DNA of 64,000 bases from an uncultured Bacteroidales bacterium (GTDB lineage: Bacteria; Bacteroidota; Bacteroidia; Bacteroidales; CAYRRV01), in assembly GCA_964426725.1 (NCBI GenBank), contig CAYRRV010000015.1, positions 7,765 through 71,764 of the forward strand, written 5' to 3'. The translations under genes and the position numbers were made by a program. The notes beneath the pieces are model-generated. The model saw nothing but the letters and a program-made list of their open reading frames with translations. It was not told the origin of the DNA and did not search any database. Shown one piece after another: positions 39,381 to 60,893 of the stretch (position 1 is its first letter; the number at the start of each line of letters is the position of its first letter).

Positions 39381-39631
39381 TATTCTTCCCCGGTTTTTGG
39401 CAATTCATTATCCCAGGGATTTTCTTCCAGTTCCTTTATAAGCTGAAGGGTTTCCTTGGCTTCTTCTTCACTTATTTTTTGCAGGGCAAAACCCGTGTGC
39501 ACCAGTATGTAGTCTCCCACTTGCACGTCATCCACGAGTTGCAGTCCTGCAGTAACAACAGTTCCCCCGATAGATGCTTTCGCTGTTTCTCCTTCTATGG
39601 AAATAATTTTTGCCGGTATACTTAAACACAT
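39380..39631 (-). CDS. hypC: HypC/HybG/HupF family hydrogenase chaperone
   Basis: MCLSIPAKII N-terminal Cys motif. 83 aa. Overlaps hypD by 1 nt and hypF by 10 nt. Confidence 0.9.
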   Translation of the reverse strand: MCLSIPAKIISIEGETAKASIGGTVVTAGLQLVDDVQVGDYILVHTGFALQKISEEEAKETLQLIKELEENPWDNELPKTGEE

Positions 39632-44660: not shown

Positions 44661-44678
44661 TTGTTATCAAAATAACAA
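44661..44678. promoter_or_regulatory. Rex-operator-like palindrome upstream of the TM1266-like/TonB-receptor/hypFCDE operon
   Basis: TTGTTAT-CAAA-ATAACAA, 18 bp, the same core as the two boxes at 52350-52384. About 127 nt upstream of the 44534 start. An extra inverted repeat ATAACAATA (44631-44639) / TATTGTTAT (44659-44667) is present. Confidence 0.5.
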
Positions 44679-46375: not shown

Positions 46376-46864
46376 TTATTCATTTACTGTTTCAGCCAAA
46401 CGCTCAGGACACTTCAGATAACTGGTCAGGAATTCAAAAGCCGCTTCCAGGTTTATTTTAGCCTTTCTCGTGAGTGATTCTTTAAGCTCCCACTCGTATC
46501 CCCTGATATGCATAAGATAACATGCAGGAACTTTGCCGTAAATCTGTCTACATAAATTCACCACGAAACCAGGGCTGACCGAGTGCATGGTAAATTCAAC
46601 CTTCGGGGAAGGCTCTACCTCTGTCATGCAATGGCCGGGAATATCTTCCATGGAAGCATCTGCAAAAACCACGACGTCACTGTTTGAAATTTCAGCAGCA
46701 TCTTCAATATTGAGCTGATAATTAGAATCCGTGATGATATTTGTAAAATGATTATTTCTTGCCCACTTTTCAATCTTTTCAGCCAAAAGAACCCCGAGGC
46801 CATCATCCTGACGGCCCGGGTTACCGTATCCATAGACAAGTATCTTTGGAGTTGCTTGCATCAT
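46376..46864 (-). CDS. hoxW: [NiFe] hydrogenase maturation endopeptidase (HoxW/HycI family)
   Basis: ILVYGYGNPGRQDDGLG signature. 162 aa. Start overlaps the hoxH stop by 4 nt. Confidence 0.9.
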   Translation of the reverse strand: MMQATPKILVYGYGNPGRQDDGLGVLLAEKIEKWARNNHFTNIITDSNYQLNIEDAAEISNSDVVVFADASMEDIPGHCMTEVEPSPKVEFTMHSVSPGFVVNLCRQIYGKVPACYLMHIRGYEWELKESLTRKAKINLEAAFEFLTSYLKCPERLAETVNE

Positions 46865-48312
46865 GAAATATACTTGTCAATTAATTTATCATCTTCACCA
46901 ACCAAAGTAATCTCGAGTGGCATTTTGCCAAGCGCGTGGGTAGCACAGCTCAAACAGGGATCGTATGCTCTAATTGCTACTTCCACAGCATTTTTCATAC
47001 CCTCTGTAATTTCGGATTTGCCGGTAAATTGTGCTTTAGCAACCTGGTTTACAGCAACGTTCATGGGTTCGTTATTATTAGTGGTAGAAACAATTAGGTT
47101 AGCCATTTCAATCTGATCATTATGGTTAACGCGATAATGATGGAACAATGTTCCCCTGGGAGCCTCGAGTAATCCGATACCCTCCAGTTTTTTCTCACCT
47201 TTGGTAACCAGGTCACCTTTCAGTAGATCCGGGTCATTCAGGAGTTCCTTCATCATCTCTGCACTGTGGAGTGTTTCTATTAACCGGCACCAGTGCATGT
47301 GCATGGCACTGTTACTGGGTTTTTCCTTCGTGTAATTCTTGTAGTATTCAAATTCCTTCTGTGCCATTGGGGTAGGAATAAACTCGGCAGTGTTCAGTCT
47401 TGCCAGTGGTCCTACCGTGTACCAACCATTCTTTTTACCCAGTTCTTTCAGGTAAGGAAACTTCATGTAGCTCCATGAGCGTACCTCTTCATCAATATAT
47501 TGGAGATAATCCTGGTACTTTATATCGTTCAGTATCTTGTTACCATCCTTATCGACTGCCCTTAACACTCCATGATATAAATCAAGTGCACCATCCGCGC
47601 GAACCAAACTCAGGTAATTGGAAGGAAATGTTACAAATTTATCGATAAGATCAACATTCTTCGTGTGGTAATCTTTAAAGAAATCGAGAGCTGCCTGGGC
47701 CCATTCTATCATCTTGTCAATGTTCAGCGGGTCTGGTCCCTTGAGAAATTCATCTCGTTCTTCGATGGTAAGATGCTTATTAATTCCGCCGGGAATTGCA
47801 CCGGTACCATGGATTTTTTTACCTGCAGTAGCCCGGATAACCTCCTGTCCGAATTTTCTCATCATCACTCCCTGAACAGCAAGATCCTTGTATTCCTGAG
47901 CCACGCCAATCACGTTTCGGACAACGGGATCTGCATCAACGCCAAAAAGAAGATCAGGTGATGCCAGGTGGAAAAAATGAAGGGCGTGCGACTGGAACAT
48001 CTGGCCATAATGCATCAGGCGACGCATTTTTTCGCCAGTTGGTGTTAAACCGTCACCGGTTCCTGCTCCCACGATTTCATCCATCGCCTTGGCAGATGCC
48101 AGGTGGTGGCTCACGGGACATATTCCACAAAGACGTTGAACCAGTACCGGTGCTTCCCAGTAGGGACGTCCCTGAACAAATCTCTCAAACCCCCTGAATT
48201 CAACGATATGTAATCTTGTTTGTGTAACATTACCGGCATTATCAAGATGAACTGTCACCTTCCCATGTCCTTCAACCCTGGTTACCGGTTCTATTGTTAT
48301 TTTTTGTGCCAT
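46861..48312 (-). CDS. hoxH: NAD-linked bidirectional [NiFe] hydrogenase large subunit (group 3d-like)
   Basis: RVEGHG, the N-terminal RLCGICPVSH and the C-terminal DPCLSCATH Ni-Fe ligand motifs, with a 24-aa tail after His for proteolytic maturation. Confidence 0.9.
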   Translation of the reverse strand: MAQKITIEPVTRVEGHGKVTVHLDNAGNVTQTRLHIVEFRGFERFVQGRPYWEAPVLVQRLCGICPVSHHLASAKAMDEIVGAGTGDGLTPTGEKMRRLMHYGQMFQSHALHFFHLASPDLLFGVDADPVVRNVIGVAQEYKDLAVQGVMMRKFGQEVIRATAGKKIHGTGAIPGGINKHLTIEERDEFLKGPDPLNIDKMIEWAQAALDFFKDYHTKNVDLIDKFVTFPSNYLSLVRADGALDLYHGVLRAVDKDGNKILNDIKYQDYLQYIDEEVRSWSYMKFPYLKELGKKNGWYTVGPLARLNTAEFIPTPMAQKEFEYYKNYTKEKPSNSAMHMHWCRLIETLHSAEMMKELLNDPDLLKGDLVTKGEKKLEGIGLLEAPRGTLFHHYRVNHNDQIEMANLIVSTTNNNEPMNVAVNQVAKAQFTGKSEITEGMKNAVEVAIRAYDPCLSCATHALGKMPLEITLVGEDDKLIDKYIS

Positions 48313-48324
48313 TTTTCTAAAATT

Positions 48325-48873
48325 TTAATCAAATTTAACAACTTCATAAGGTAAATTCATTTCTTCACCCTTTATAAGAGCGACAAGGGCATTCCAGATC
48401 AAGTCAGCTCTCGGTGGACAACCCGGCAGGTAATAATCAATCTTAACTACCTCGTGACAAGGATATACTTTATCAAGCAAGATGGGTAGTTCCTCGTCGT
48501 TTGGAATGATTTTATCGTCATTTGCTACAACTGAAGGTGACTTAAGGTAGGCTTCCTCAAGACATTCCTGCACGGGCAGACCGTTTCTCATGGCGGGTAA
48601 TCCACCCATGATCGCGCACTCGCCAACAGAAATAAGAATCTTGCATTGTTTCCTGAATTCCCGCAGAACTTCCACGTTCTCGGAATTACAACATCCACCC
48701 TCGATTAATCCAATATCACATTCCTTGGTGAACTCCTTTATATCATTTATTGGTGATTTATTGAATTCCACCAGTTCGATGAGATCCAATATTCTTTCAT
48801 CGATATCCAGGATCGACATGTGGCAGCCAAAACATCCTGCCAATGAAGTTGTTGCAACTACTGGTTTACTCAT
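48325..48873 (-). CDS. hoxY: [NiFe] hydrogenase small subunit (NuoB-like, HoxY)
   Basis: The ATG at 48873 gives MSKPVVATTSLAGCFGCHMS. Proximal-cluster cysteines (GCFGC..., GECA..GG, PGCPP). 182 aa. Confidence 0.9.
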   Translation of the reverse strand: MSKPVVATTSLAGCFGCHMSILDIDERILDLIELVEFNKSPINDIKEFTKECDIGLIEGGCCNSENVEVLREFRKQCKILISVGECAIMGGLPAMRNGLPVQECLEEAYLKSPSVVANDDKIIPNDEELPILLDKVYPCHEVVKIDYYLPGCPPRADLIWNALVALIKGEEMNLPYEVVKFD

Positions 48874-48880
48874 TTTTTTA

Positions 48881-49597
48881 TCAATTTTTATTTGTTTTTT
48901 CCATTTTTTCAATTTCACTACCAATCGGGCGATTATCAAATTTATGTGCCCCGATAGGTGTATCAAATCCTTTACCCCTTCTCATCAAAGCGCCAACAGG
49001 GCAAATAGCAACCGCTTCATCTGCTAATTCATCAGTAATTTTACCTACCAAATCGGGATCGATATTGATTTCAACCTGATGTCCGCGCTTTTTGAATGCA
49101 AAAATACTCTTGCCATTTTCATCCTTAATCCCGCGGATGCACCGTTTACATAAAATGCACCGGTTATGATCTTTCACGATCTTAGGATTATTGGCTTCCA
49201 CGTTTCTTGGATTAAACTTGTAAGGAAAACGCGGAACCATCATCTGAAACCTGTAACCCAGCGCCTGTAATTCACAGTCTCCGCTTTTCTCACACGCGGG
49301 ACAAAAATGATTACCCTCGACGAATAGTAATTCAACAATAGATTTTCTGATGTCTTGTATTTCTGCTGTTTCAGTCTCGATTTCCATTCCATCAGTAACG
49401 GGAGTGGTGCAGGATGTCATGGGACGACCATTCACGAGTACCGTGCATATGCGGCAAGCTCCCCTGGGTTTTACTCCCGGTATATTACACAAGGTAGGAA
49501 TGTAAATACCATTTTCTTTAGCAGCTTCCACGATGTAATGACCTTTCTCGGCCATGCATTCTTTTCCGTTTATAGTGAATTTTACGATTTTATTCAT
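48881..49597 (-). CDS. hoxU: diaphorase subunit HoxU (2Fe-2S plus 4Fe-4S, NuoG N-terminal-like)
   Basis: CNIPGVKPRGACRICTV 2Fe-2S motif, His-ligated cluster region (GNHFCPACEKSGDCELQ) and CILCKRCIR. Confidence 0.9.
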   Translation of the reverse strand: MNKIVKFTINGKECMAEKGHYIVEAAKENGIYIPTLCNIPGVKPRGACRICTVLVNGRPMTSCTTPVTDGMEIETETAEIQDIRKSIVELLFVEGNHFCPACEKSGDCELQALGYRFQMMVPRFPYKFNPRNVEANNPKIVKDHNRCILCKRCIRGIKDENGKSIFAFKKRGHQVEINIDPDLVGKITDELADEAVAICPVGALMRRGKGFDTPIGAHKFDNRPIGSEIEKMEKTNKN

Positions 49598-49610
49598 GAG
49601 TTTTTAACAT

Positions 49611-51425
49611 TTAATGGGTTTCAACAAATGGTTTTCTACCGGTTGCTTTAGCTGCAGCCTGAGAAGCGGAAGTAAGGTCAAAACCGGTATCAAAATCTTT
49701 TTCTTTTTGAACAAGGGAATTATAGAGCCCCCTGAAATTCCTGATGCTGGTAAGAATCGGGTTGCCCGCTGTCTGTCCGAGACCACAACGGTTTACCTTT
49801 AGCATCTTTCCCCATTCGAGCAAATCGTCTATATCAGAAGTGACCCCTTTGCCTTCCAGGATTTTTATTAATTTATCTCTCATGAGCACGGGTAATGCCC
49901 TGCAGGGAACACATGATCCACAAGATTCATCAATAAAGAAATCGGTAAAATTAAGGACGATATCTCTTAATAAATCCCGTTTTTTGCCAACAACAATTAG
50001 TGAGCCCCCGGTCGCCAGGTCCTCGTATCCCAAGGTACGACTAAAATCATTTGAACTTATGATCGAACCGGAAGGACCTCCAACCTGCACGCCCTGAACA
50101 CTATCAACATCCGCACCCACCATTTCGAGGATATCATTCACGTTGAATCCCCATTCAACCTCGTAAACGCCGGGATACTTGCAATCACCGGAAATACTAA
50201 GGAGTTTTGTTCCGGTTGACTCGGGAGTTCCGAATGATTTATACCATTCCCCGCCATTAAGCATGACTTTAACCACGCTACAGAATGTTTCAACATTGTT
50301 CACCACTGTAGGCATTTCCAGGTAACCTTTTTCCACCGGGAAAGGGGGACGGTCGCGGGGCTCGCCTCTTTTTCCTTCAGCCGATTCGATAAGCGCTGAT
50401 TCTTCACCACACACGTAAGCACCTGCACCAAACTGAATGCGTATATCGAAATTAAATCCTTTAATACCACCAATATCCTTGCCCAGGAGATTCCTGTCGC
50501 GTGCACCTTGCAAAATATTTTCAAGGTAGTTTTGCAGGTACTTGTACTCGTGACGAACATAGAGTATACCCTCGGTAGCGCCTACTGCATACGCTGCAAT
50601 TACCATACCTTCAAATAGTAACTTAGGACGTTCCGTTAGGATAACCCTGTCTTTAAAAGTACCGGGTTCACCTTCATCTGCATTACAGAAAATATATTTT
50701 TTATCTCCTTCAGCCTTTCTGCAAAATTCCCATTTTAAACCTGTCGGGAAACCAGCCCCGCCACGCCCGCGGATATTGGACGACTTAACCTCCTCAATCA
50801 CCTCCTCGGGCGACATGGTAGGCAGTTTCTTCCATACAACAATACCGGGAGTATATTCTTCTGAAAGTACCGGGCCTTTTTTGCGAATATTATTAAAAAC
50901 CATTGACTTAATTAGTTCCGTATTGTTTTTTCCATCCCCGTAGGATTCAACAATTAAATCATGCTCGGTTTTGCCATCCTTGATATCTTTCACGATTTCC
51001 TTGGCCCTGTAAGGAGTAATCTTTGTAAATACAACCCCGTTTATGATGGCTGCCGGCTCCTGATCGTTCATGCCAATGCATGCTGTATCATACAACCCAA
51101 TCAATCCATCTTCACTGACAGAACCAAAAGAACAGCCTGCCTCTTCCTCGAAGGCTTTCGCCACATCTTCCCGGCCCATCATATTAGCCACTGCGCTATT
51201 GTTCAGGTAAATGTTGAATTTACCGGTTGGTTGCATGCTAAAGAAATGGTAAAAAGAGATGGTCTGTTCCACGTCCACCTTCGAAATATCCAACTCAGCA
51301 GCGATTTCTGAAACAGCTTCATCCGAAATAAAGCCAAGTTCAGACTGTACATCAATAAGGATATCCATCAACCTGGTCTTATCCTTATTGTAATTCTCGA
51401 TAATCGATTTCACGTTTGTTGCCAT
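49611..51425 (-). CDS. hoxF: diaphorase subunit HoxF (NuoF-like with N-terminal NuoE-like domain)
   Basis: RGRGGAGFPTGLKWE, GAGAYVCGEESALIESAEG and ESCGSCVPCR NuoF motifs. The N-terminal NuoE-like domain lacks the 2Fe-2S cysteines (IYLNNSAVANMMG versus ICTGTACYVRG in HydC). Confidence 0.9.
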   Translation of the reverse strand: MATNVKSIIENYNKDKTRLMDILIDVQSELGFISDEAVSEIAAELDISKVDVEQTISFYHFFSMQPTGKFNIYLNNSAVANMMGREDVAKAFEEEAGCSFGSVSEDGLIGLYDTACIGMNDQEPAAIINGVVFTKITPYRAKEIVKDIKDGKTEHDLIVESYGDGKNNTELIKSMVFNNIRKKGPVLSEEYTPGIVVWKKLPTMSPEEVIEEVKSSNIRGRGGAGFPTGLKWEFCRKAEGDKKYIFCNADEGEPGTFKDRVILTERPKLLFEGMVIAAYAVGATEGILYVRHEYKYLQNYLENILQGARDRNLLGKDIGGIKGFNFDIRIQFGAGAYVCGEESALIESAEGKRGEPRDRPPFPVEKGYLEMPTVVNNVETFCSVVKVMLNGGEWYKSFGTPESTGTKLLSISGDCKYPGVYEVEWGFNVNDILEMVGADVDSVQGVQVGGPSGSIISSNDFSRTLGYEDLATGGSLIVVGKKRDLLRDIVLNFTDFFIDESCGSCVPCRALPVLMRDKLIKILEGKGVTSDIDDLLEWGKMLKVNRCGLGQTAGNPILTSIRNFRGLYNSLVQKEKDFDTGFDLTSASQAAAKATGRKPFVETH

Positions 51426-51436
51426 AGATCCTTAAA

Positions 51437-52084
51437 TTATTTTTTATTACTTATTGTATATTTATTTGGTTTTTCTGTATTATTAATAAAATACACGAGA
51501 TTAGTAAGCTCATGTTCAATATTGATGTTACGCACGTGCACCGCATCATTCCCCTTCAATATAACCGGAGTGAAATTTAAAACACCTTTTATGCCTGCCC
51601 TTTTTAAATTTTCAAAAGTTTCAACCGCAACGAGAGCAGGTACTGCTAATACGGCCAATCGAATGTCATTACCCGATACGAATTCTTCCAGAAGATCCAT
51701 GTGATAAACCGGCACTGAAGATTTTTCATCAATTTTTTTACTGTCAATATCAAAACCTGCCACGATAAATATGGAATCTTCCTGGAATTGCTTAAAATGC
51801 ATCAATGCTTGTCCGATTCTGCCGGTTCCGATAATAATTATCCTTTGTGGTTCTTTTAACCCGATTATCCTGTCAATTTTTTCAATAATACCATCAATAT
51901 GGTATCCTCCTTTCTGAATACCGGTTATGCCAAACAAACTAAAATCTTTTCTTACCAGGGATGATGAAATATCAAGGGCCTCGGCAATGTTATCCGAAAA
52001 AACCCGAATAAATCCCATGGCTTTAAATCTGGTTAGCAAAGATTTATATGAAGTTAACCGTAATATTCTTTCCTTCTCACTCAT
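51437..52084 (-). CDS. rex: redox-sensing transcriptional repressor Rex
   Basis: RLTSYKSLL..., winged-helix region SDNIAEALDISSSLVRKDFSLFG and Rossmann IIGTGRIGQAL. 11 nt upstream of hoxF. Confidence 0.9.
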   Translation of the reverse strand: MSEKERILRLTSYKSLLTRFKAMGFIRVFSDNIAEALDISSSLVRKDFSLFGITGIQKGGYHIDGIIEKIDRIIGLKEPQRIIIIGTGRIGQALMHFKQFQEDSIFIVAGFDIDSKKIDEKSSVPVYHMDLLEEFVSGNDIRLAVLAVPALVAVETFENLKRAGIKGVLNFTPVILKGNDAVHVRNINIEHELTNLVYFINNTEKPNKYTISNKK

Positions 52085-52349: not shown

Positions 52350-52384
52350 TTGTTATTTTAATAACAATGTTATTTTAATAACAA
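52350..52384. promoter_or_regulatory. two tandem Rex-operator-like palindromes between rex-hox and the hyd cluster
   Basis: TTGTTATTTTAATAACAA (52350-52367) and ATGTTATTTTAATAACAA (52367-52384). Each matches the TTGTTAA-N4-TTAACAA type in 12 or 11 of 14 specified positions. They lie about 75-105 nt upstream of the first hyd-cluster gene. Confidence 0.55.
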
Positions 52385-52462
52385 TAAATTATTTATCTTT
52401 GTGTTAATATTATGTGCAGGTAAATAATCAATTTTCTGTTATAATTTTAACACAACTTGAAG

Positions 52463-52807
52463 ATGAAGGTAGAAGATGTAATTAATGTGCTGAATGCCAA
52501 AATTATTTGTGGAGAAGAAAATCTTGGGCAGGAAGTGCAGGCAGCTTTTGCATCAGATTTAATGAGTGATGTGTTAACACTTGAAAACGGGAATATCCTG
52601 CTTATTACCGGACTGGCAAATACGCAAGCCATCAGAACGGCTGAAATGTCAGATATTAAGCATATTGTCATAGTGCGAAATAAAAAAGCAACAGGAGAAA
52701 TGATTGAACTTGCCAGGGAAAATGGAATGACCTTGCTGGAATGTCACGGGACCATGTTCAAAGCATCGGGACTTTTGTTTTGTGCTGGTTTAAAACCTGT
52801 TTACTGA
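52463..52807 (+). CDS. DRTGG domain protein (copy 1)
   Basis: 114 aa from the ATG at 52463 (the track starts at TTG 52457). MKVEDVINVLNAKIICGEENL...ASDLMSDVL...LLITGL is paralogous to the 54601 gene. Confidence 0.8.
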   Translation: MKVEDVINVLNAKIICGEENLGQEVQAAFASDLMSDVLTLENGNILLITGLANTQAIRTAEMSDIKHIVIVRNKKATGEMIELARENGMTLLECHGTMFKASGLLFCAGLKPVY

Positions 52808-52813
52808 TTAGGA

Positions 52814-53236
52814 ATGCATTTTGAATATAAAGTTGAAGGCGGAAATTTCACGGAAGCGGGTAAAGCATCCAGCGAGATTAAAAAGGTTTTAAAAAAACTG
52901 AATGTAAATGGCACCATCATAAAAAAAACCGTGGTGGCACTTTACGAGGCTGAAGTAAATATTGTCGCCCATGCTTACAAGGGAACCATCAAGGTAGATA
53001 TCAGTACTGATATGATAACAATGGTATTGCAAGATGAGGGACCAGGTATAGCAGATATTGAACAGGCCATGCAGGAAGGATACTCGACAGCTTCAGAGGA
53101 AGTAAGAGAGATGGGATTTGGAGCAGGAATGGGACTTCCAAATATCAAGAAAAATGCAGATTCACTTGAAATCCAAAGTGATGTTGATGTTGGTACGATA
53201 GTAAAAATTGAAATAAAACTTACAAGAAATGCATAA
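52814..53236 (+). CDS. small GHKL ATPase (anti-sigma-factor/Ser-Thr-kinase-like, RsbW/SpoIIAB-type)
   Basis: 140 aa. N-box EAEVNIVAHA, G1 DEGPGI, G2 GFGAGMGLPNI. No DHp/His domain. Confidence 0.8.
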   Translation: MHFEYKVEGGNFTEAGKASSEIKKVLKKLNVNGTIIKKTVVALYEAEVNIVAHAYKGTIKVDISTDMITMVLQDEGPGIADIEQAMQEGYSTASEEVREMGFGAGMGLPNIKKNADSLEIQSDVDVGTIVKIEIKLTRNA

Positions 53237-54614
53237 TGCAAACAATACCACGGTTCCTTTTTATCACGCGCTTAGCGTGTTGGAAGAGGTGTGTATTGGT
53301 TGTTCCAGGTGCATGAGGGTTTGTCCGACTGAAGCGATAAGAGTTAAAGATGGGAAAGCCAGGATAAATGCCAATAAATGCGTGGATTGTGGTGAATGCT
53401 ACAAAGTATGTCCCGTGTCAGCTATCGTGGTTAAACAAGATGATCTGGATCAGATTTTTAATTACAAACGCAAAGTTGCACTGATACCAGCCGTTTTCAC
53501 CGCGCAATTTCCTGAAAATATAAACAGGGACCTTATATACGCGGCACTGAAAGAAATCGGATTTACAGATATATACGAGGTTGAAAACGCTGTAGCAACA
53601 ATTATCAGGGCTAATCAGGAATTGAATGCAGAAAGCAGACAAGATAACCCTGCCTTTATCTCTGCTTTTTGTCCGGCAGTTGTTCGTCTGATTCAGGTTA
53701 AATTTCCTGATCTGGTTGACAAAATTATACCAGTAAAACCACCTGTTGATATTGCTGCTTTACAGGTGAAAAAATTACTGCAAAAAGAAGGTGTACAAGG
53801 CATTGACATAGGTCTTTTCTACTTCACTCCATGCGCCGCGAAAATTGCAGCTGTGAAAACTCCTGTTGGAGATGATGCAACCAGGGTCAATGGTGTGATT
53901 AACATGGATCTCATGTACAATAAGGTTTTAAGAATCTTGAAACATTCAGGGACAGAAGATAATTTGAATCAAACTGAATTCAAGGGATGTCACGGGGCAG
54001 AATGGAGTCTTACAAAGGGTGAGTCTTCATATTTCGAAGGGAGATGCCTTTCTATTGATGGAATAAATAATGTCATCGAATTTCTTGAAAAAGTTGAAGA
54101 TGGCGATATGAACCAAATTGATTACCTGGAACTCAGGGCATGTGACGAGAGTTGTGCCGGTGGAATCCTGGTTTCCGAAAACAGGTTTCTCACAACTGAA
54201 AGACTAAGGGAAAAAGTTAAAGCTCAAAAAGAAAAAGAAATAAGATCGATCACGGAAGATGAAAAATACTTTGCTGAACATGCCAGGTTAAAACCGATAA
54301 AACCCCGCTCCATTGATCCCCTGGATGAAGATATCGCGGTGGCCATGGAAAAAATGAAGAAGATAAGAAAAATTCTTTGTTTCCTGCCCGGATTTGACTG
54401 TGGAGCATGTGGCGCTCCCGGATGTCAGGCATTAGCCGAAGATATCGTGAATAATGAAGCTAATTTGTCCCATTGTATTTTCATGCAAAAAGTTATGGAG
54501 AAAAATAAAAAACTGAGCCCCGAGCACAGCTTGAATATCATTGAAAAAATTTGGGGTAAAGACAGGTTGGATAAAAATTGTAATAAAAAAGGTGCAGGAG
54601 ATGACAGTTTCTGA
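53229..54614 (+). CDS. [FeFe]-hydrogenase-like protein, putative sensory (HydS-like) with C-terminal Fe-S domain
   Basis: 2x CxxCxxCxxxCP. H-domain-like motifs SAFCPAV / TPCAAK / ELRACDESCAGG (cluster Cys kept, proton-relay Cys lost). C-terminal CFLPGFDCGACGAPGC (C-x6-C-x2-C-x4-C). Confidence 0.8.
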   Translation: MHNANNTTVPFYHALSVLEEVCIGCSRCMRVCPTEAIRVKDGKARINANKCVDCGECYKVCPVSAIVVKQDDLDQIFNYKRKVALIPAVFTAQFPENINRDLIYAALKEIGFTDIYEVENAVATIIRANQELNAESRQDNPAFISAFCPAVVRLIQVKFPDLVDKIIPVKPPVDIAALQVKKLLQKEGVQGIDIGLFYFTPCAAKIAAVKTPVGDDATRVNGVINMDLMYNKVLRILKHSGTEDNLNQTEFKGCHGAEWSLTKGESSYFEGRCLSIDGINNVIEFLEKVEDGDMNQIDYLELRACDESCAGGILVSENRFLTTERLREKVKAQKEKEIRSITEDEKYFAEHARLKPIKPRSIDPLDEDIAVAMEKMKKIRKILCFLPGFDCGACGAPGCQALAEDIVNNEANLSHCIFMQKVMEKNKKLSPEHSLNIIEKIWGKDRLDKNCNKKGAGDDSF

Positions 54615-54945
54615 TATAGTAAAAGAATTGAGATTAAAAGTTCTGGCGGGCGCTAACGGACTGGATAAGGAAATCACTGGCGGGTACGCGTCCGATTTAC
54701 TTAGTGATGTCATGGGAAACGCGGATGCCGGCAAGATATGGATCACGTTGCAAACGCATAAGAACGTGATAGCAGTCGCCTCATTAAAAGATTTAAGTGG
54801 TGTGCTCCTCGTGAATGGATTAAAACCCAATAGCGACATGGCCCAAAAAAGCAACGAGGAAAAAATCCCGGTATTAGGTACAAATGCAGGTGCTTTTGAA
54901 ATTGCCGGTGAATTTTATAAATTGCTGGAAGAAAGGAAAAAATGA
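54601..54945 (+). CDS. DRTGG domain protein (copy 2)
   Basis: The ATG at 54601 gives MTVSDIVKELRLKVLAGANGL...ASDLLSDVMG. 114 aa. Overlaps the previous gene by 14 nt. Confidence 0.8.
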   Translation: MTVSDIVKELRLKVLAGANGLDKEITGGYASDLLSDVMGNADAGKIWITLQTHKNVIAVASLKDLSGVLLVNGLKPNSDMAQKSNEEKIPVLGTNAGAFEIAGEFYKLLEERKK

Positions 54946-55685
54946 AAAAATACAGGGCTGATTTACATATTCACACGGTGCTCTCGCCCTGCGGGTCACT
55001 TGAAATGTCACCAGCCCGGATCGTTGAAAAGGCAGCAGAAAAAGGACTGGATATCATCGGGATAACCGATCACAACAGCACACTGCACTGCAAGTTAATT
55101 GAGACGATAGCCCTGGAAAAAGGCATTATGGTACTGAAAGGTGCCGAAGTAGCAACAAAAGAAGAGGTTCATTGCCTGGTGTTCTTTGAAAAAGATGAAG
55201 AATTGAATGCTTTTCAGCAGTTCATGGAAAAAAAAATGCCAGGGATCCGTAATAATCCAAGATTATTCGGATACCAGGTAGTAGTCGATCGAGAAGAGAA
55301 TATCCATAAAGAAGTGGATAATTTACTTATCGCCGGTTTAAAAGCAGGTATAGATGAAATCTCGGAGGTGGTGAAATCTTTGAATGGGATGTTTATTCCG
55401 GCTCACGTGAACCGGGAAAAAAACAGCATTATCAGTCAGATGGGATTTATCCCTGATGATTTATTTTACGATGCCTTGGAACTTTCCAGGCACATTACCG
55501 TAAACGAGTTCATCAGGCTTCACCCTGAACTGGCTGACAGCACGTTTATCCGTAGTTCGGATGCACATTATCCTGATGATATAGGATATGCATTTACCTG
55601 CTTCGAGATGGAAGACAGATCATTCAGCGAAATTCGAATGGCTTTACATGAAACGGAAAACAGGAGGGTAATAACGGATGAATAA
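54942..55685 (+). CDS. PHP-domain phosphoesterase
   Basis: ADLHIHTVLSPCG...GITDHNS...PAHV...SDAH metal-ligand pattern of PHP domains. ATGA overlap with the upstream gene. Confidence 0.85.
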   Translation: MKKYRADLHIHTVLSPCGSLEMSPARIVEKAAEKGLDIIGITDHNSTLHCKLIETIALEKGIMVLKGAEVATKEEVHCLVFFEKDEELNAFQQFMEKKMPGIRNNPRLFGYQVVVDREENIHKEVDNLLIAGLKAGIDEISEVVKSLNGMFIPAHVNREKNSIISQMGFIPDDLFYDALELSRHITVNEFIRLHPELADSTFIRSSDAHYPDDIGYAFTCFEMEDRSFSEIRMALHETENRRVITDE

Positions 55686-56226
55686 CCTGGCTTTACATAT
55701 CCTGGATATCGTGCAAAATTCAATTACGGCTTCTGCCAGCGAAGTGCAAATACTGATCAAGGAAAGTGCAAGGGAAAATATTTACAGGATAACCATTATC
55801 GACAACGGGAGGGGAATGAAAAAAGAATGGGCTGAGTTAGTAACTGATCCCTACACGACAAGCAGGAAAACAAGAAAAGTCGGGTTAGGTTTACCCCTTT
55901 TAAAACAGAATGCTGAAAGCACGGGTGGATTTCTCCGGGTTGAATCAGCGGAAGGAAAAGGTACCAGGGTCGTGGCCGAGTTTAAAAAAGATCATATCGA
56001 CAGACCCCCAGCGGGCGATTTGCCAGGTATCCTTAAAATTATCGTTGCCGGAAACCCGGGTTTGAATCTTGTATACAAACATACCACGGGAAAGGGTACA
56101 TACATGTTTGATACAGACGGGGTAAAAAAAATGCTTGATAATGTCCCGATTAATGAACCTAAAATTCTTCAGGCTTTGAAAGAAATGATAAAAGTAAACC
56201 TGCAGGAAATAAATGCAGAAGAATGA
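55678..56226 (+). CDS. GHKL ATPase domain protein (second, 182 aa)
   Basis: HILDIVQNS (N-box), DNGRGM (G1) and GLGLPLL (G2), followed by an ~80-aa extension. No His-phosphotransfer domain. Confidence 0.8.
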   Translation: MNNLALHILDIVQNSITASASEVQILIKESARENIYRITIIDNGRGMKKEWAELVTDPYTTSRKTRKVGLGLPLLKQNAESTGGFLRVESAEGKGTRVVAEFKKDHIDRPPAGDLPGILKIIVAGNPGLNLVYKHTTGKGTYMFDTDGVKKMLDNVPINEPKILQALKEMIKVNLQEINAEE

Positions 56227-56277: not shown

Positions 56278-56676
56278 ATGGCAAAAGTTAAATCACTGGA
56301 AGATTTAAAAAAACTTCAGGGAGAATTGCAGAAGAAGGTGCAACTAAGAGAAAATAGTGACCATCCTGAAAATGTAGTTCAGGTAAAGGTTGCTATGGCG
56401 ACTTGCGGTATTGCGTCAGGCGCGAAAGATACCATGGAGTATCTGATTGACGAACTGGATAAAAGAAATATTGAAGCAGTGGTTACACAAACCGGTTGCA
56501 TGGGATATTGCTATGCTGAACCCACTGTTGAAATTACACTTCCCGGGAAAGATCCAATTGTTTATGGAAATGTTGATACCCGAAAAGCAGATGAATTAAT
56601 TGAAAAGTACATCAAGAACGGGGAGTTGGTAGACGGTATTATACCTGATAATTACGAAACCATTGATTCAAAATAA
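56278..56676 (+). CDS. thioredoxin-like [2Fe-2S] ferredoxin
   Basis: 132 aa. VAMATCGIASGA...TGCMGYCYAEP cysteine pattern of (2Fe-2S) ferredoxin-domain proteins found in hydrogenase operons. Confidence 0.8.
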   Translation: MAKVKSLEDLKKLQGELQKKVQLRENSDHPENVVQVKVAMATCGIASGAKDTMEYLIDELDKRNIEAVVTQTGCMGYCYAEPTVEITLPGKDPIVYGNVDTRKADELIEKYIKNGELVDGIIPDNYETIDSK

Positions 56677-56695
56677 AAACAGGAGGATTTCAGAA

Positions 56696-58489
56696 ATGAC
56701 AAAATATAAAATGCACTTGATGGTTTGTGCTGGAACGGGCTGCAGGGCATCCGAGAGTCAAGCAATTGTAGATAACCTGAACACGATTCTCGAGGACAAA
56801 AACCTGCAGGATGAAGTACAGGTTGTTTCCACGGGTTGTTTTGGCTTTTGTGAAAAGGGGCCTATCGTGAAGGTTTTGCCCGACAATACCTTTTACACGG
56901 AAGTAAAACCCGAAGATGCCAGAAACATCATTGATGAGCACGTGGTAAAGGGCAGAATAGTAAACAAGCTTCTCTATAAAGATCCCGTGAACAAAGAAGA
57001 AATAAGCGATTCCAAGCACATGGGGTTCTACAAGAAACAAATCAGGATTGCCCTCAGGAATTGCGGATTCATCAACCCCGAGAATATTGACGAGTATATT
57101 GCACGAGATGGATACATGGCACTGGGTAAGGTTCTCAATGATTATTCCCCGAGGGAAGCTATTGATATTATTAAAGCTTCCGGTTTGCGCGGTAGAGGTG
57201 GCGGAGGCTTCTCGACCGGCCTCAAGTGGGAAATCACATATAACAGCAAGGCCGACATGAAATACGTGGTATGTAACGCTGACGAGGGAGACCCGGGTGC
57301 TTTTATGGACCGCTCTATTCTCGAGGGAGACCCCCACTCAGTAATTGAAGCCATGGCAATTTGCGGATTCTGCATTGGTTCTTCCAAGGGACTTATATAC
57401 ATAAGGGCAGAATACCCGCTGGCCATTAATCGCTTGAAAATTGCCATTGCCCAGGCCAGGGAATTAGGCTTGCTGGGTAATGATATCATGGGAACCGGAT
57501 TTGATTTTGATGTTGAACTTCGATATGGTGCAGGTGCATTTGTTTGTGGTGAAGAAACCGCGCTCATTCACTCGATGGAAGGCAGTCGTGGTGAACCAAC
57601 ATTCAAACCTCCTTTCCCTTCAGAAGAAGGTTACCTGGGTAAGCCCACCAACGTGAATAACGTGGAAACTTTTGCCAACGTGCCGGTTATTATAAATAAG
57701 GGTTCCGAATGGTTCGCTTCAATTGGAACAGAAAAATCAAAAGGAACCAAAGTTTTCGCCCTTGCCGGGAAAATTAATAACGTGGGACTGATTGAAGTAC
57801 CGATGGGAACCACTCTCCGCGAGGTTATTTTCGAAATTGGAGGTGGTATTAAAAACGGGAAAAAATTCAAGGCGGTGCAAACGGGTGGTCCCTCGGGTGG
57901 TTGTCTAACTGAAAAACACCTCGATACGCCAATTGATTATGATAACCTGCTTGCATGTGGATCCATGATGGGTTCCGGTGGCATGATCGTGATGGACGAA
58001 GATGATTGTATGGTTTCTGTAGCCAAGTATTATCTTGACTTCACGGTTGAAGAATCTTGTGGAAAATGTGCTCCATGCCGGATAGGTAACAAACGTCTTT
58101 ATGAAATGCTCGATAAAATCACCAAGGGTAACGGAACAGACGAGGATTTGGATCTTCTTAAAAACCTAAGTAATGTTATCAAGGATACATCACTCTGCGG
58201 GCTGGGTCAGACAGCTCCCAACCCGGTGCTTTCCACCATGGATAATTTCTGGGAAGAATACATTGAACACGTGACTGATAAAAAATGTAGAGCCGGTTCC
58301 TGTCGCTCACTCGTTAAATATATGATCAGTGAAGAGAATTGCGTCGGTTGCACAGCATGCGCGAGAGCATGCCCCGTGAATGCCATTGCCGGTGAAAGGA
58401 AACAACTGCATACCATTGATCAGTCAATCTGTATCAAATGTGGTGCCTGTTTGGAGAAATGTAAATTTGATGCCGTTTATATTAGCTAA
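56696..58489 (+). CDS. hydB: NADH-binding flavoprotein subunit of bifurcating-type [FeFe] hydrogenase (NuoF-like HydB)
   Basis: The ATG at 56696 is preceded by AGGAGG. N-terminal 2Fe-2S domain (VCAGTGC...GCFGFC), RGRGGGGFSTGLKWE, GAGAFVCGEETALIHSMEG, ESCGKCAPCR and a C-terminal 2x[4Fe-4S]. Confidence 0.9.
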   Translation: MTKYKMHLMVCAGTGCRASESQAIVDNLNTILEDKNLQDEVQVVSTGCFGFCEKGPIVKVLPDNTFYTEVKPEDARNIIDEHVVKGRIVNKLLYKDPVNKEEISDSKHMGFYKKQIRIALRNCGFINPENIDEYIARDGYMALGKVLNDYSPREAIDIIKASGLRGRGGGGFSTGLKWEITYNSKADMKYVVCNADEGDPGAFMDRSILEGDPHSVIEAMAICGFCIGSSKGLIYIRAEYPLAINRLKIAIAQARELGLLGNDIMGTGFDFDVELRYGAGAFVCGEETALIHSMEGSRGEPTFKPPFPSEEGYLGKPTNVNNVETFANVPVIINKGSEWFASIGTEKSKGTKVFALAGKINNVGLIEVPMGTTLREVIFEIGGGIKNGKKFKAVQTGGPSGGCLTEKHLDTPIDYDNLLACGSMMGSGGMIVMDEDDCMVSVAKYYLDFTVEESCGKCAPCRIGNKRLYEMLDKITKGNGTDEDLDLLKNLSNVIKDTSLCGLGQTAPNPVLSTMDNFWEEYIEHVTDKKCRAGSCRSLVKYMISEENCVGCTACARACPVNAIAGERKQLHTIDQSICIKCGACLEKCKFDAVYIS

Positions 58490-58513: not shown

Positions 58514-60286
58514 ATGGAAAAGTTAAAGATAACTATTGACAATAAAACACTGGAAGTCGAAAAAGGAACGAGTATCCTTGAAGCAGCCAGATCCGTGGGG
58601 GTGAATATCCCCACGCTGTGTCATTTGAAGTTGCACGACCTGAACATCGAGAATAAACCCGGTGGATGCCGCGTTTGCTCGGTAGAGGTAGTCGGGAGAA
58701 GAAACCTGGCTCCAGCCTGCGCAACCGAGTGCATGGATGGAATGACCATAAACACGCATAACATCAGGGTTCTGAACGCGAGAAAAACAGTGCTCGAATT
58801 AATCCTGAGCGATCACCCGTTTGATTGCCTGGTTTGTGCTAAAAATGGTCATTGCGATTTACAGTCACTTGCCCAGGAAATGGGAATTCGCAAATTACAT
58901 TACACGGGAGAGCAATCCCATTACAGGGAAGATACATCTCCATCAATCATTCGTGAAATGGATAAGTGTATCATGTGCCGGAAATGTGAAACCATGTGTA
59001 ATGATTTCCAGACCGTGGGTGCACTCTCTGCCGTTAACAGGGGATTCGAAGCTGTTGTGGCCCCTGCTTTCGAGATGAACCTGGAACACTCACCCTGTAC
59101 TTATTGTGGGCAATGCGTGGCTGTTTGTCCCACGGGTGCATTAACCGAGGTTGATCACACGAATGCTGTTATCAGGGCACTGGCTGATCCCGGGAAAAAA
59201 GTGATCGTCCAAACCGCTCCTGCTGTAAGAGCAGCACTTGGAGAAGAATTTGGCCTTGAGCCAGGCACGAGAGTTACTGGCAAGATGGTATCGGCGTTAA
59301 GGAGCCTGGGCTTCGACTACGTGTTTGATACCGATTTCGCGGCCGACCTAACCATCATGGAAGAAGGTACCGAGTTACTCGGTCGTTTAAACGACTTCCT
59401 TGCAGGGAATAAAGATGTACAATTACCTATCTTAACCTCTTGCTGTCCGGCATGGGTCAACTTCTTTGAGCATCATTTTCCCGATTTAAAAGATGTTCCT
59501 TCTACAGCACGTTCGCCCCAACAGATGTTTGGTAGCATTGCAAAAACTTATTTTGCAGATACAATTGAAACGAAGAGGGAAGATATGGTTGTTGTTTCCA
59601 TCATGCCATGTTTGGCCAAAAAATACGAGTGCCAGCGTGAAGAATTCAGCGTGGATGGAAACCCGGATGTTGATTTTGCTCTTTCAACCCGCGAACTGGC
59701 CAACCTGATCAAACAATCAAATATCGATTTTAACTCCCTGATTAATGATGATTTCGACAAACCGCTGGGCGAATCAACCGGTGCAGCCGTGATCTTTGGA
59801 ACAACGGGTGGTGTGATAGAAGCAGCCGTTAGAACTGCATACGAGCTGCATACAAAAAAAACACTTGAAAATGTCGATTTCAAAGAACTCAGGGGTATGG
59901 AAGGTGTTCGTGAAGCCACTATTAATTTTGACGGACTGGAATTAAAAATCGGGATCGCGCATGGTCTTGGCAATGCCAGAAAGCTCTTAGAAGACGTTAG
60001 AGCGGGGAAATCTCTGTTTCACGCGATTGAAATCATGGCATGTCCCGGCGGATGTATCGGCGGGGGCGGGCAACCCCTTCATCACGGTGATTCTAGTATT
60101 ATCAAGGCTCGGCACAAGGCTATTTACGAGGAAGATGAAGCCAAATCTCTCAGGAAATCTCACGAAAACCCTTACATTGAAAAGTTATACACCGAGTTCC
60201 TGGGCAAGCCAATGAGTGAAAAAGCACATCATCTGCTGCACACGCATTATTTCGACCGGAGTAAGAGATATTTAATTAAAGGTTAG
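58514..60286 (+). CDS. hydA: [FeFe] hydrogenase catalytic subunit (group A, multimeric/bifurcating type)
   Basis: N-terminal 2Fe-2S and ferredoxin clusters plus canonical H-cluster motifs TSCCPAWV, MPCLAKKYE and EIMACPGGCIGGGGQP. Confidence 0.95.
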   Translation: MEKLKITIDNKTLEVEKGTSILEAARSVGVNIPTLCHLKLHDLNIENKPGGCRVCSVEVVGRRNLAPACATECMDGMTINTHNIRVLNARKTVLELILSDHPFDCLVCAKNGHCDLQSLAQEMGIRKLHYTGEQSHYREDTSPSIIREMDKCIMCRKCETMCNDFQTVGALSAVNRGFEAVVAPAFEMNLEHSPCTYCGQCVAVCPTGALTEVDHTNAVIRALADPGKKVIVQTAPAVRAALGEEFGLEPGTRVTGKMVSALRSLGFDYVFDTDFAADLTIMEEGTELLGRLNDFLAGNKDVQLPILTSCCPAWVNFFEHHFPDLKDVPSTARSPQQMFGSIAKTYFADTIETKREDMVVVSIMPCLAKKYECQREEFSVDGNPDVDFALSTRELANLIKQSNIDFNSLINDDFDKPLGESTGAAVIFGTTGGVIEAAVRTAYELHTKKTLENVDFKELRGMEGVREATINFDGLELKIGIAHGLGNARKLLEDVRAGKSLFHAIEIMACPGGCIGGGGQPLHHGDSSIIKARHKAIYEEDEAKSLRKSHENPYIEKLYTEFLGKPMSEKAHHLLHTHYFDRSKRYLIKG

Positions 60287-60323: not shown

Positions 60324-60809
60324 ATGTCAAGCGTTAAATTAGAACTGAAGCAGAAGGATGTTGATAAAATAAAAGAAATCTGTAAAGCATTTAACAATAA
60401 ACCAGGTGAACTTATCAACGTTCTTCACCAGGCGCAGCAAGAGTTTGGATATCTTCCCGCGGAGGTTCAGGAAGTGGTAGCTGAACAAATGAATGTTTCG
60501 GTTGCCAAAGTTTACGGAGTAGTTACTTTTTATAGCTTCTTCTCCATGATTCCGAAAGGAAAATTTCCAATCTCAATTTGCACTGGCACAGCGTGTTACG
60601 TGAGAGGTGCAGAAAAAGTTTTGGAAGAATTCAAAAAAAGTCTTAATATTGAAGTCGGGGAGACAACATCGGATGGAAAGTTTTCATTAAGTTGTTTACG
60701 TTGTGTTGGTGCATGTGGACTTGCACCTGTTGTAATGGTTGGAGATAAAGTATACGGAAGAGTCGCACCCGAGGGTGTTAAAGATATCCTCATGGAATAT
60801 GAGGATTAA
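60324..60809 (+). CDS. hydC: NuoE-like [2Fe-2S] subunit of the hydrogenase
   Basis: 161 aa. ICTGTACYVRG...CLRCVGACGLAP (C-x4-C...C-x3-C). Confidence 0.9.
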   Translation: MSSVKLELKQKDVDKIKEICKAFNNKPGELINVLHQAQQEFGYLPAEVQEVVAEQMNVSVAKVYGVVTFYSFFSMIPKGKFPISICTGTACYVRGAEKVLEEFKKSLNIEVGETTSDGKFSLSCLRCVGACGLAPVVMVGDKVYGRVAPEGVKDILMEYED

Positions 60810-60858
60810 ATCATACTGCTTTATGGCTTTATGGTTTTTAGGTTTTAGGTTTGGTAAG

Positions 60859-60893
60859 GCCTTCCGGGGTGGTTCCCGGAAGGCTTTTTTTTT
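60859..60893 (+). terminator. rho-independent terminator after hydC
   Basis: GCCTTCCGGG-gtggtt-CCCGGAAGGC followed by T9. Confidence 0.85.

Follow-up and report, generated by a model that had tools for sequence, protein, structure and literature searches.

We describe here ten consecutive plus-strand genes in a 64,000-nucleotide (nt) stretch of DNA from an uncultured Bacteroidales bacterium (contig CAYRRV010000015.1; the whole stretch is called the window). These genes are very probably the Bacteroidota version of a conserved, putatively H2-sensing cassette that is built around a group D [FeFe] hydrogenase, HydS, and precedes the genes of an NADH-dependent, bifurcating-type hydrogenase, HydABCD. 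An earlier note made from the letters of the window alone (the sequence-only reading) had picked out the first six genes as a candidate H2- or redox-sensing switch. All six of its plus-strand open reading frames (ORFs) were recovered, and the domain calls that it had made for the six proteins were reproduced with Pfam and NCBIfam. The ten genes, in the order DRTGG1-GHKL1-HydS-DRTGG2-PHP-GHKL2-HydD-HydB-HydA-HydC, are as follows (protein lengths in amino acids, aa).

52463..52807, plus strand: DRTGG1, a small DRTGG/HPr-kinase-N-like protein of 114 aa (Pfam DRTGG, 25.4 bits)
52814..53236, plus strand: GHKL1, a SpoIIAB/RsbW-like serine-kinase-type ATPase of 140 aa (HATPase_c_2, 44.8 bits)
53229..54614, plus strand: HydS, a putative sensory [FeFe] hydrogenase of group D (M2e; HydDB C1), 461 aa, assigned by domains, motifs and alignments
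54601..54945, plus strand: DRTGG2, a paralogue of DRTGG1, 114 aa (Pfam DRTGG, 24.1 bits)
54942..55685, plus strand: PHP, a PHP-family metal-dependent phosphoesterase of 247 aa (PHP, PF02811, 36.4 bits, and PHP_C)
55678..56226, plus strand: GHKL2, a stand-alone histidine-kinase-type CA domain with a conserved C-terminal extension of ~75 aa, 182 aa in all (HATPase_c, 59.5 bits)
56278..56676, plus strand: a HydD-like thioredoxin-type [2Fe-2S] ferredoxin of 132 aa, fourth hydrogenase subunit (weak 2Fe-2S_thioredx and clostridial 2Fe-2S ferredoxin matches)
56663..58489, plus strand: HydB, NuoF-like flavoprotein subunit (Complex1_51K, NADH_4Fe-4S, 2Fe-2S_thioredx, Fer4)
58514..60286, plus strand: HydA, catalytic group A [FeFe] hydrogenase (NF040763, "NADH-dependent [FeFe] hydrogenase, group A6", 898.7 bits against a cut-off of 765)
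60324..60809, plus strand: HydC, NuoE-like [2Fe-2S] subunit (2Fe-2S_thioredx, 179.9 bits)

HydS consists of two Fer4 domains, an Fe_hyd_lg_C domain (79.1 bits) and an FeS domain (PF04060, 46.5 bits), with no PAS match in Pfam. Its F-domain holds two [4Fe-4S] motifs, C22-C25-C28-C32P and C51-C54-C57-C61P, and C148, C202, C305 and C309 align with the H-cluster cysteines of the HydA encoded downstream, whose own motifs are the canonical TSCCP, MPCLAKKYE and EIMACPGGC, as had been noted. Alignment with HydA and with ten orthologue pairs bore out the three substitutions that had been pointed out in HydS. SAFCP stands where HydA has TSCCP, so that the proton-relay Cys299 (CpI numbering) is replaced by Phe; ELRACDESC against EIMACPGGC changes Met to Arg; and TPCAAKIAA against MPCLAKKYE changes Glu to Ala. 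A further change had been overlooked, namely that the Met of MPC (Met353) is Thr200 in HydS; replacement of Met353 by Ser or Thr is well conserved in M2e (Land 2020, PMC8163306). The Phe at position 299 was kept in ten of ten aligned Bacteroidales homologues, and F, Y, A, S or T occupied this position among 128 cluster representatives. The extra C-terminal C384-x6-C391-x2-C394-x4-C399 described for the protein is present, and the ligand set given in the literature, Cx2Cx4Cx16C, corresponds to C391, C394, C399 and C416, which are invariant in the family alignment.

Comparison with other hydrogenases pointed to the same class. HydS shares 37% identity (281 bits) with P0150, a TamHydS-like cluster representative that agrees with the Thermoanaerobacter mathranii protein TamHydS at 12 of the 17 residues numbered in the TamHydS paper. 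Residues 11-432 of HydS also align with the TamHydS coding sequence taken from the supplement of that paper, where optical character recognition has introduced frameshifts that make the identity approximate and confine the comparison to the level of motifs. The homologue from Anaerophaga thermohalophila is 53% identical, and this species stands in the published list of 70 group D enzymes, which includes Bacteroidota (Parabacteroides, Odoribacter, Proteiniphilum, Alkaliflexus, Marinilabilia and Anaerophaga). By comparison, the score of HydS against the window HydA was only 41 bits, and that against a second sensor of 623 aa found in Marinilabiliaceae was 62-85 bits. Every sequence feature by which the literature recognises group D (M2e) was found in HydS, the placement resting on these scores and features and not on a formal tree. 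The position of the gene is also that given for group D, upstream of a multimeric group A enzyme and beside a "histidine kinase-like ATPase" (PMC8163306). HydDB names the class of such enzymes "C1, histidine kinase-linked (putative)". The motifs and the group D features thus uphold the proposal that the 461-aa protein is a sensory-type [FeFe] hydrogenase without a proton path, while the module cannot be presented as something new, since HydS belongs to an established class (group D/M2e, HydDB C1).

The same data bear on whether HydS is a sensor at all. Instead of sensing H2, it might sense redox state (ferredoxin), or it might be a slow catalytic hydrogenase with an accessory or alternative role, the small proteins serving as assembly or stability factors for HydABCD. 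TamHydS catalyses reversible H+/H2 interconversion (PMC8163306), HydS retains an electron-transfer F-domain, an older genome survey tabulated the gene as "Fd-linked", and a survey in Cell in 2024 still has group D as functionally undefined. Yet the activity reported for TamHydS is low and its affinity for H2 high (PMC8163306). The proton-relay Cys is lost throughout the HydS family, and HydS is invariably tied to two signalling-type ATPases, being fused to them in some lineages. As for the assembly role, the maturases HydE, HydF and HydG are, as a matter of general knowledge, unrelated to these proteins. We consider this non-sensory explanation very unlikely.

Relatives of the cassette were collected by a scan of one genome per species, in which at least 584 candidate stretches among the 599 matches listed encode relatives. 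The window looks Bacteroidota-like, as it encodes a TonB-dependent receptor with a CarboxypepD_reg domain, and it had no close relative among the species genomes scanned. Synteny was counted in the best 80 stretches, which biases the counts towards Bacteroidales; ORFs were called and matched by phmmer, with heuristic choice of starts. These best 80 relatives all belong to Bacteroidales or Marinilabiliales, with 48-57% identity. The order DRTGG1-GHKL1-HydS-DRTGG2-PHP-GHKL2 was intact in 73 of the 80 loci and all ten genes were present in 61. The exceptions were contig ends or a single missed gene, and no rearranged locus was seen among the 80. This conservation of gene order is far beyond chance. 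The occurrence of the cassette in a Bacteroidota-like genome, which had been called notable, is therefore routine, given the number of relatives, the membership of the best 80 and the presence of Bacteroidota in the published group D list.

In Firmicutes, comparable genes had been described as neighbours of NADH-dependent hydrogenase genes, and the Clostridial loci that we examined bore this out. In Oscillospiraceae, [Clostridium] cellulosi and Caproiciproducens the order is DRTGG-GHKL1-HydS-DRTGG-PHP-HydC-GHKL2-HydD-HydB-HydA. Cloacimonadota have the Clostridial-type order, traced as far as HydB, and cassette genes, with HydC displaced as well, also lie on a 1.59-Mb contig of one further lineage. 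One Clostridial locus from a human-associated metagenome (L086:8187-11365) carries the five-gene core DRTGG-GHKL1-HydS-DRTGG-PHP with neither hydABC nor GHKL2 adjoining, an example of a sensor core that stands apart from its presumed target. Because GHKL2 travels with HydD-HydB-HydA in other phyla, and because the five-gene core occurs alone, the natural unit is better described as a sensor core of five genes plus a hydrogenase block of five that includes GHKL2 (5+5) than as the six-gene module and four hydrogenase genes (6+4) of the sequence-only reading. The gene orders imply that in Bacteroidota HydC moved to the end and GHKL2 became translationally coupled to PHP.

Two neighbouring arrangements were observed among the relatives. 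Four Marinilabiliaceae loci (L013:5877-7748, and likewise L011, L018 and L074) encode a second sensory-type HydS of ~620 aa, consisting of Fer4, Fe_hyd_lg_C and FeS domains followed by a tail of ~215 aa without a Pfam match. A HydC-HydB-HydA set of its own accompanies this protein immediately before the group D cassette, so that two sensor/hydrogenase pairs follow one another. In a Cloacimonadota locus (L088:15528-17504), a 658-aa fusion of SpoIIE (PP2C) and HATPase_c_2 is encoded just downstream of the cassette, and HydA was not found at its usual place.

By sequence, HydABCD is a multimeric NADH-dependent, bifurcating-type group A [FeFe] hydrogenase. The position of HydD is conserved in all loci. 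Only three well-placed cysteines, C43, C74 and C78, are found in HydD of the window and its orthologues; Ser or Gly stands where the second cysteine is usual, and not every phylum keeps C43 and C74. The listed TTG start of HydB at 56663, which overlaps HydD by 14 nt, is uncertain; an ATG 33 nt downstream (MTKYK...) would leave a gap of +19 nt, nearer to the +11 to +21 nt of relatives.

The genes are tightly packed. A 6-nt gap separates DRTGG1 from GHKL1, and the overlaps that had been listed were reproduced at GHKL1/HydS (53229/53236, 8 nt), HydS/DRTGG2 (54601/54614, 14 nt), DRTGG2/PHP (54942/54945, 4 nt) and PHP/GHKL2 (55678/55685, 8 nt). Family alignments back the ATG starts at 52463 and 54601. 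Throughout the family the junctions of the first six genes are short or overlapping; the 14-nt overlap of HydS and DRTGG2 is the commonest state among relatives (37 of 78), as is the 4-nt overlap of DRTGG2 and PHP (24 of 78). The one sizeable spacer of the family lies between GHKL2 and HydD and is usually ~100 nt long. In the window it measures 51 nt, so that to describe the module as welded to the hydrogenase genes is a slight overstatement. This 51-nt spacer contained no terminator and no TAnnTTTG box. For this reason all ten genes are probably co-transcribed, from one Rex-controlled promoter to one terminator. The elements at the two ends are the following.

51437..52084, minus strand: Rex, redox-sensing transcriptional repressor (NF003996, 207.6 bits against a cut-off of 138; Put_DNA-bind_N and CoA_binding)
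52350..52384, no strand: candidate tandem Rex-type operator by motif match, two 18-base-pair (bp) palindromes, TTGTTATTTTAATAACAA and ATGTTATTTTAATAACAA, at a 17-nt offset
52394..52401, plus strand: candidate Bacteroidota -7 box TATCTTTG (TAnnTTTG), 10 bp downstream of the second Rex box
60856..60887, plus strand: strong terminator-like hairpin of intrinsic type with a 14-bp stem, 8 GC pairs and a T run, closing the ten-gene unit

The hairpin is the sole strong terminator-like site on the plus strand between 52463 and 61400. Among the ~100-nt GHKL2-HydD spacers of Bacteroidales relatives, e.g. in L005 and L036, 26 of 71 contain a promoter-like TAnnTTTG box and some contain a Rex-like half-palindrome too, which suggests that relatives may have a second, internal Rex-controlled promoter before HydD that is missing from the window.

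Rex boxes had been placed next to the module, and the palindromes at 52350-52384 are indeed there. They were found with the pattern TTGTKAW-N4-WTMACAA at no more than one mismatch, for which 0.59 matches are expected in the 64-kb window. Three matches were found, two of them being the tandem pair. The third and only other match is a perfect palindrome, TTGTTATCAAAATAACAA, at 44661-44678, in a stretch of ~1 kb without an ORF of 150 aa or more, between a TonB-dependent receptor gene and a DHO_dh-like gene. The classical Rex consensus, TTGTGAA-N4-TTCACAA, was tried with up to three mismatches and gave matches at chance level only, none of them in the intergenic region; clostridial-type and degenerate patterns were needed for this reason. 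Among related loci, 44 of 77 have a Rex motif within 350 nt upstream of DRTGG1, and the motif density is 2.30 per kb upstream of DRTGG1 compared with 0.03 per kb elsewhere in the loci, a 73-fold enrichment. The motif of relatives is often tandem at the same 17-nt offset, 95-135 nt before the start codon. TAnnTTTG is the Bacteroides promoter consensus. Of 74 related loci, 56 have it within 150 nt of DRTGG1 on the upstream side, where its density is 5.3 per kb as against 0.12-0.64 per kb within genes. A scan with a sigma-70 promoter model, which is unsuited to Bacteroidota, did not rise above chance level. The operator enrichment indicates that in Bacteroidales the whole unit would be part of a Rex regulon.

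The rex gene is transcribed divergently from the [FeFe] operon, and the intergenic region is common to both. Rex heads an operon on the minus strand (46376-52084) that also encodes a NuoE/NuoF fusion (604 aa), a HoxU-like protein (238 aa), the small (213 aa) and large (483 aa; VhuA-like, 398.7 bits) subunits of a group 3-type [NiFe] hydrogenase and a maturation protease (162 aa). As judged from this arrangement, Rex probably represses both hydrogenase operons from the one shared region. A few kb from the [NiFe] structural genes lies the gene for the HypF carbamoyltransferase of [NiFe] maturation (39622-41943, minus strand). Between HypF and the [NiFe] genes stands the TonB-dependent receptor gene (41897-44287).

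The presence of Rex raises the question of whether the cassette itself works through transcription. A complex of HydS, DRTGG and GHKL proteins could sense H2 and modify or sequester Rex or an unlinked regulator, in the style of HoxBC-HoxJ-HoxA. HydDB has C1 enzymes possibly regulating through kinases, a transcriptional regulator adjoins TamHydS (Land 2020, PMC8163306), Rex and its operators adjoin the module in the window, and the occurrence of the five-gene core away from any hydABC suggests action in trans. Against this, no DNA-binding or receiver protein was found as a conserved neighbour, and Rex adjoins the cassette in few of the 80 loci (e.g. L054, L061 and L077). Neither GHKL protein has a His-phosphotransfer domain, and GHKL2 is embedded among the structural genes beside HydD in every phylum examined. 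We regard a transcriptional switch of this kind as unlikely; output through an unlinked transcription factor, taken by itself, is somewhat less so and can be called doubtful.

Natural fusions with HydS gave the most direct information on the partners of the protein. The survey covered the 149 best representatives of the HydS family at 50% identity clustering, with Pfam run on the 19 that are longer than 470 aa. A C-terminal DRTGG domain was found on HydS in nine clusters, and additionally in P0520; an N-terminal DRTGG domain was found in two clusters; and an N-terminal HATPase_c_2 domain was found in one cluster (P0187, 607 aa, six contigs). PAS was absent from all 19 representatives. The fusions are paralogue-specific, as scored with profiles built from the orthologues of the window proteins:

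DRTGG fused at the C-terminus: 74-139 bits with the DRTGG2 profile, 24-61 bits with the DRTGG1 profile
DRTGG fused at the N-terminus: 99-108 bits with the DRTGG1 profile, 39-47 bits with the DRTGG2 profile
ATPase fused at the N-terminus: 139-143 bits with the GHKL1 profile, 14-15 bits with the GHKL2 profile

The order of the fused domains mirrors the order of the genes, and fused forms repeat at identical length on independent contigs of up to 1.5 Mb. In the one fused lineage whose locus was examined (L087), DRTGG1, GHKL1, PHP, HydC, GHKL2, HydD and HydB are all present but DRTGG2 no longer has a gene of its own. In the P0219 lineage, DRTGG2 starts about ten residues past the last cysteine of the C-terminal cluster, which is the position of PAS in group C. 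A fused HydS-DRTGG2 relative was modelled with a pLDDT of 82 and a pTM of 0.78. P0520 (555 aa) joins a Bacteroidota-type HydS in frame to a DRTGG2 whose initial Met is still in place and which shares 54% identity with the window DRTGG2; it was found on a single 19-kb contig and appears to be either a fusion of very recent origin or the product of a sequencing frameshift. Because the natural fusions occur in the exact order of the genes, we propose that DRTGG1, GHKL1 and DRTGG2 are likely to form a complex with HydS. Knowledge of the protein interactions and functional complexes of TamHydS is limited (Schumann 2026, PMC13104023).

The two DRTGG proteins, which had been named as equal-length paralogues, are indeed related in this way (25% identity, E = 2e-14). 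Their Pfam assignment is marginal, DRTGG1 lying just above and DRTGG2 just below the DRTGG (PF07085) cut-off of 25.2 bits. Invariant residues of DRTGG1 across Bacteroidota and Clostridia are D32-x-x-S35-D36-V37, T49-G50, R58-T59 and R72/K74; those of DRTGG2 are G28-Y29, D32, S35, W47 and T49. The D-x-x-S motif ('SDL[ML]SDV') is thus common to both paralogues, and its Ser is kept in every fused variant. An AF2 model of DRTGG2 (10-row alignment, pLDDT 70) places D-x-x-S in a low-confidence loop. Structural matches of this model had TM-scores of 0.57-0.72; the best were the HPr kinase N-domain and AF1212 (Pfam DRTGG), at 0.71-0.72, and the DRTGG domain of CBS pyrophosphatases (3L2B/3L31) was also among them. 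The latter aligns to the C-terminal half only, leaving the N-terminal half with D-x-x-S uncovered.

The three enzyme-like accessory proteins look catalytically competent because the ATP-binding residues and the PHP metal site are invariant. GHKL1 keeps its N box (E45/N49), G1 (D74-G76-G78) and G2 (G101-G107) across phyla, and its family profile matches SpoIIAB structures (1.7e-12) and RsbW. The invariant residues of GHKL2 are D10/N14, D42-G44-G46, R63, R66, G69, G71, D108 and G113; residues 8-100 in its profile match the CA domains of KinB (2.2e-14), ZraS and WalK, and the gene always directly precedes HydD, in Bacteroidota and in the other phyla examined. PHP keeps the metal-site residues H9, H11, H44, E69, H77, H155, D207 and H209. 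In agreement with the sequence-only reading, the six proteins gave no Pfam match to a receiver or DNA-binding domain, nor did the two GHKL proteins to a His-phosphotransfer domain; HisKA and PAS were likewise absent from all six. A two-component histidine kinase was considered for GHKL2 and rejected, as the match is to the CA domain only (residues 8-104), HisKA is missing and the cassette has no receiver.

The nearest solved relatives of PHP are Endonuclease Q (1.6e-15), a Bifidobacterium phosphoesterase, RNase AM and 3',5'-bisphosphate nucleotidase, and its best NCBIfam match is the PHP head of TrlF-type ATPases. No match to a protein-phosphatase PHP of the CpsB/YwqE type was found in Pfam, NCBIfam or the PDB profile search. 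Homology thus gives no support to PHP as a protein phosphatase, a role kept as a possibility only, and the earlier picture of kinases working against a PHP phosphatase is weakened. The likeness of PHP to the PHP heads of TrlF and Ppl had prompted us to consider a role in defence, which we dropped after PADLOC gave nothing meaningful.

The kinship of PHP fits a scheme in which the DRTGG proteins bind a small nucleotide or RNA, PHP degrades this ligand and the GHKL proteins, rather than being protein kinases, use ATP to work as clamps or adaptors. Its resemblance to Endonuclease Q, RNase AM, 3',5'-bisphosphate nucleotidase-type enzymes and the TrlF and Ppl heads speaks for this, as do the occurrence of DRTGG in nucleotide-regulated CBS pyrophosphatases, to which the DRTGG2 model matches (3L2B/3L31), and the 4-nt overlap of DRTGG2 and PHP, the commonest junction of the family. 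However, it is generally known that the CBS domains of these pyrophosphatases, and not DRTGG, bind the nucleotides; GHKL1 most resembles the serine kinases SpoIIAB and RsbW; and the cassette contains no cyclase or synthetase for such a ligand. A nucleotide signal therefore seems improbable to us.

An H2-sensing cassette that acts together with HydABCD is, as a whole, the explanation that we favour, with modest confidence. We infer the flow of the signal from what was observed, that is, the identity of HydS, the conservation of the cassette, the competence of its motifs, the fusions and the operator enrichment. HydS would bind H2 at an H-cluster whose proton path is disabled by the change of Cys to Phe, and would report H2 by a conformational change; for TamHydS the literature gives slow turnover, a high affinity for H2 and an alteration of secondary structure on exposure to H2. 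DRTGG1 and the SpoIIAB-like GHKL1 would dock at the N-terminal side of HydS, and DRTGG2 beside the C-terminal [4Fe-4S] domain, at the position of PAS in group C sensors. The H2-dependent state of HydS would gate GHKL1; it is possible, and we put it forward tentatively, that GHKL1 then phosphorylates a DRTGG protein, or switches partners with it, at the D-x-x-S loop. PHP, translationally coupled to DRTGG2, would reset the signal by removing the phosphate or by destroying a nucleotide ligand, and GHKL2, always adjoining HydD, would pass the state on to HydABCD. A post-translational output on HydABCD is a similarly tentative suggestion. Rex would provide NADH-dependent transcriptional control, to which the module would add H2-dependent control. 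The boldest form of the proposal is a new signalling device in which HydS, GHKL1 as a SpoIIAB-like kinase and the two DRTGG proteins form an H2-gated switch, with DRTGG in place of PAS as transducer and of STAS as phospho-acceptor, PHP in place of PP2C, and GHKL2 directing the output onto HydABCD and not onto transcription; it is speculative and in our judgement doubtful.

Several observations weigh against this scheme. No fusion joins PHP or GHKL2 to HydS, and the place proposed for these two proteins in the pathway comes from gene order alone. The DRTGG2 model resembles the HPr-kinase-N fold and not STAS, and we know of no DRTGG domain that is phosphorylated. GHKL1 was considered as a member of the SpoIIAB/RsbW group and rejected, since its best NCBIfam match, SpoIIAB, scored 59.7 bits, under the equivalog cut-off of 135 bits, and since Pfam and NCBIfam found no STAS, PP2C or sigma partner in the module. 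The closest relatives of PHP act on nucleic acids or nucleotides and not on proteins. The roles of the accessory proteins, and phosphorylation itself, we infer from sequence comparison. A promoter-like TAnnTTTG box stands before HydD in 26 of 71 relatives. H2 does not reduce the C-terminal cluster of TamHydS (PMC13104023); a redox relay that reaches DRTGG2 by way of the C-terminal domain is therefore unlikely, and the signal would be conformational.

The signalling logic had been described as biochemically uncharacterised, and the literature agrees: Land 2020 (PMC8163306) asks how the signal is transduced, and Schumann 2026 (PMC13104023) reports the limited knowledge of complexes noted above. 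Literature searches combining DRTGG or PHP with hydrogenase returned no paper on these accessory genes. Group D/C1 hydrogenases are common in anaerobes of gut, rumen, sediment and digesters, where their genes adjoin enzymes that set the H2, NADH and ferredoxin balance of fermentation. The window is an ordinary representative of this classified and partly characterised family and defines no new class. The new leads, namely the predicted partners of HydS and the conserved Ser, come from comparison of the family and not from peculiarities of the window. If HydABCD itself proves to be the target of the switch, H2 production would be under a novel form of control.

Among known systems, TamHydS (Land 2020, Schumann 2026) is the closest. 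It shares with the window HydS the F-domain with two [4Fe-4S] clusters, the H-domain, the C-terminal Cx2Cx4Cx16C cluster, the lack of PAS, the loss of the proton-relay Cys and the replacement of Met353 by a hydroxyl residue, and the Clostridial loci that we examined carry the same ten genes as the window. The two proteins differ in sequence (~30-37% identity), at position 299 (Phe in the window, Ala in TamHydS) and at position 497 (Arg in the window, Leu in TamHydS), and the window HydS has a longer C-terminal helix. The operons differ in the place of HydC, which in the window stands at the end and not between PHP and GHKL2, and in the candidate Bacteroidota-type promoter and tandem Rex operator that precede the window unit. 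Group C (M2f) sensors such as Thermotoga maritima HydS have a PAS domain fused after the C-terminal cluster, whereas the window HydS has none and DRTGG2 fills this position in its fused relatives; the partners of group C are PP2C phosphatases, histidine kinases or chemotaxis proteins (HydDB). The HoxBC-HoxJ-HoxA system of Cupriavidus necator (general knowledge and PMC8163306) likewise uses a low-activity hydrogenase as H2 sensor with a kinase-type partner and controls energy-conserving hydrogenases. Its metal centre and fold are unrelated, however, and HoxJ is a PAS histidine kinase with a response regulator, a pair that the cassette lacks.

In the SpoIIAB-SpoIIAA-SpoIIE and RsbW-RsbV-RsbU modules, as in the window, a stand-alone HATPase_c_2 protein of ~140 aa is encoded beside a small alpha/beta protein with an invariant Ser, with a phosphoesterase nearby. 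In contrast, the window has no STAS, PP2C or sigma factor; its small proteins would have the DRTGG/HPr-kinase-N fold and its hydrolase is PHP. The likeness is one of layout only, not of membership.

A Rex regulon of hydrogenase genes was reportedly described by Ravcheev et al. in 2012 for Clostridia, Thermoanaerobacterales and Thermotogales; to our knowledge, one of this kind has not been described for Bacteroidales. What the window has in common with these regulons is a Rex that scores above the cut-off and, in front of its hyd genes, palindromes 18 bp long that follow the pattern TTGTTAA-N4-TTAACAA. It differs from them in a candidate operator that is tandem at a 17-nt offset, overlaps a candidate Bacteroidota-type promoter and is shared with the rex-[NiFe] operon.

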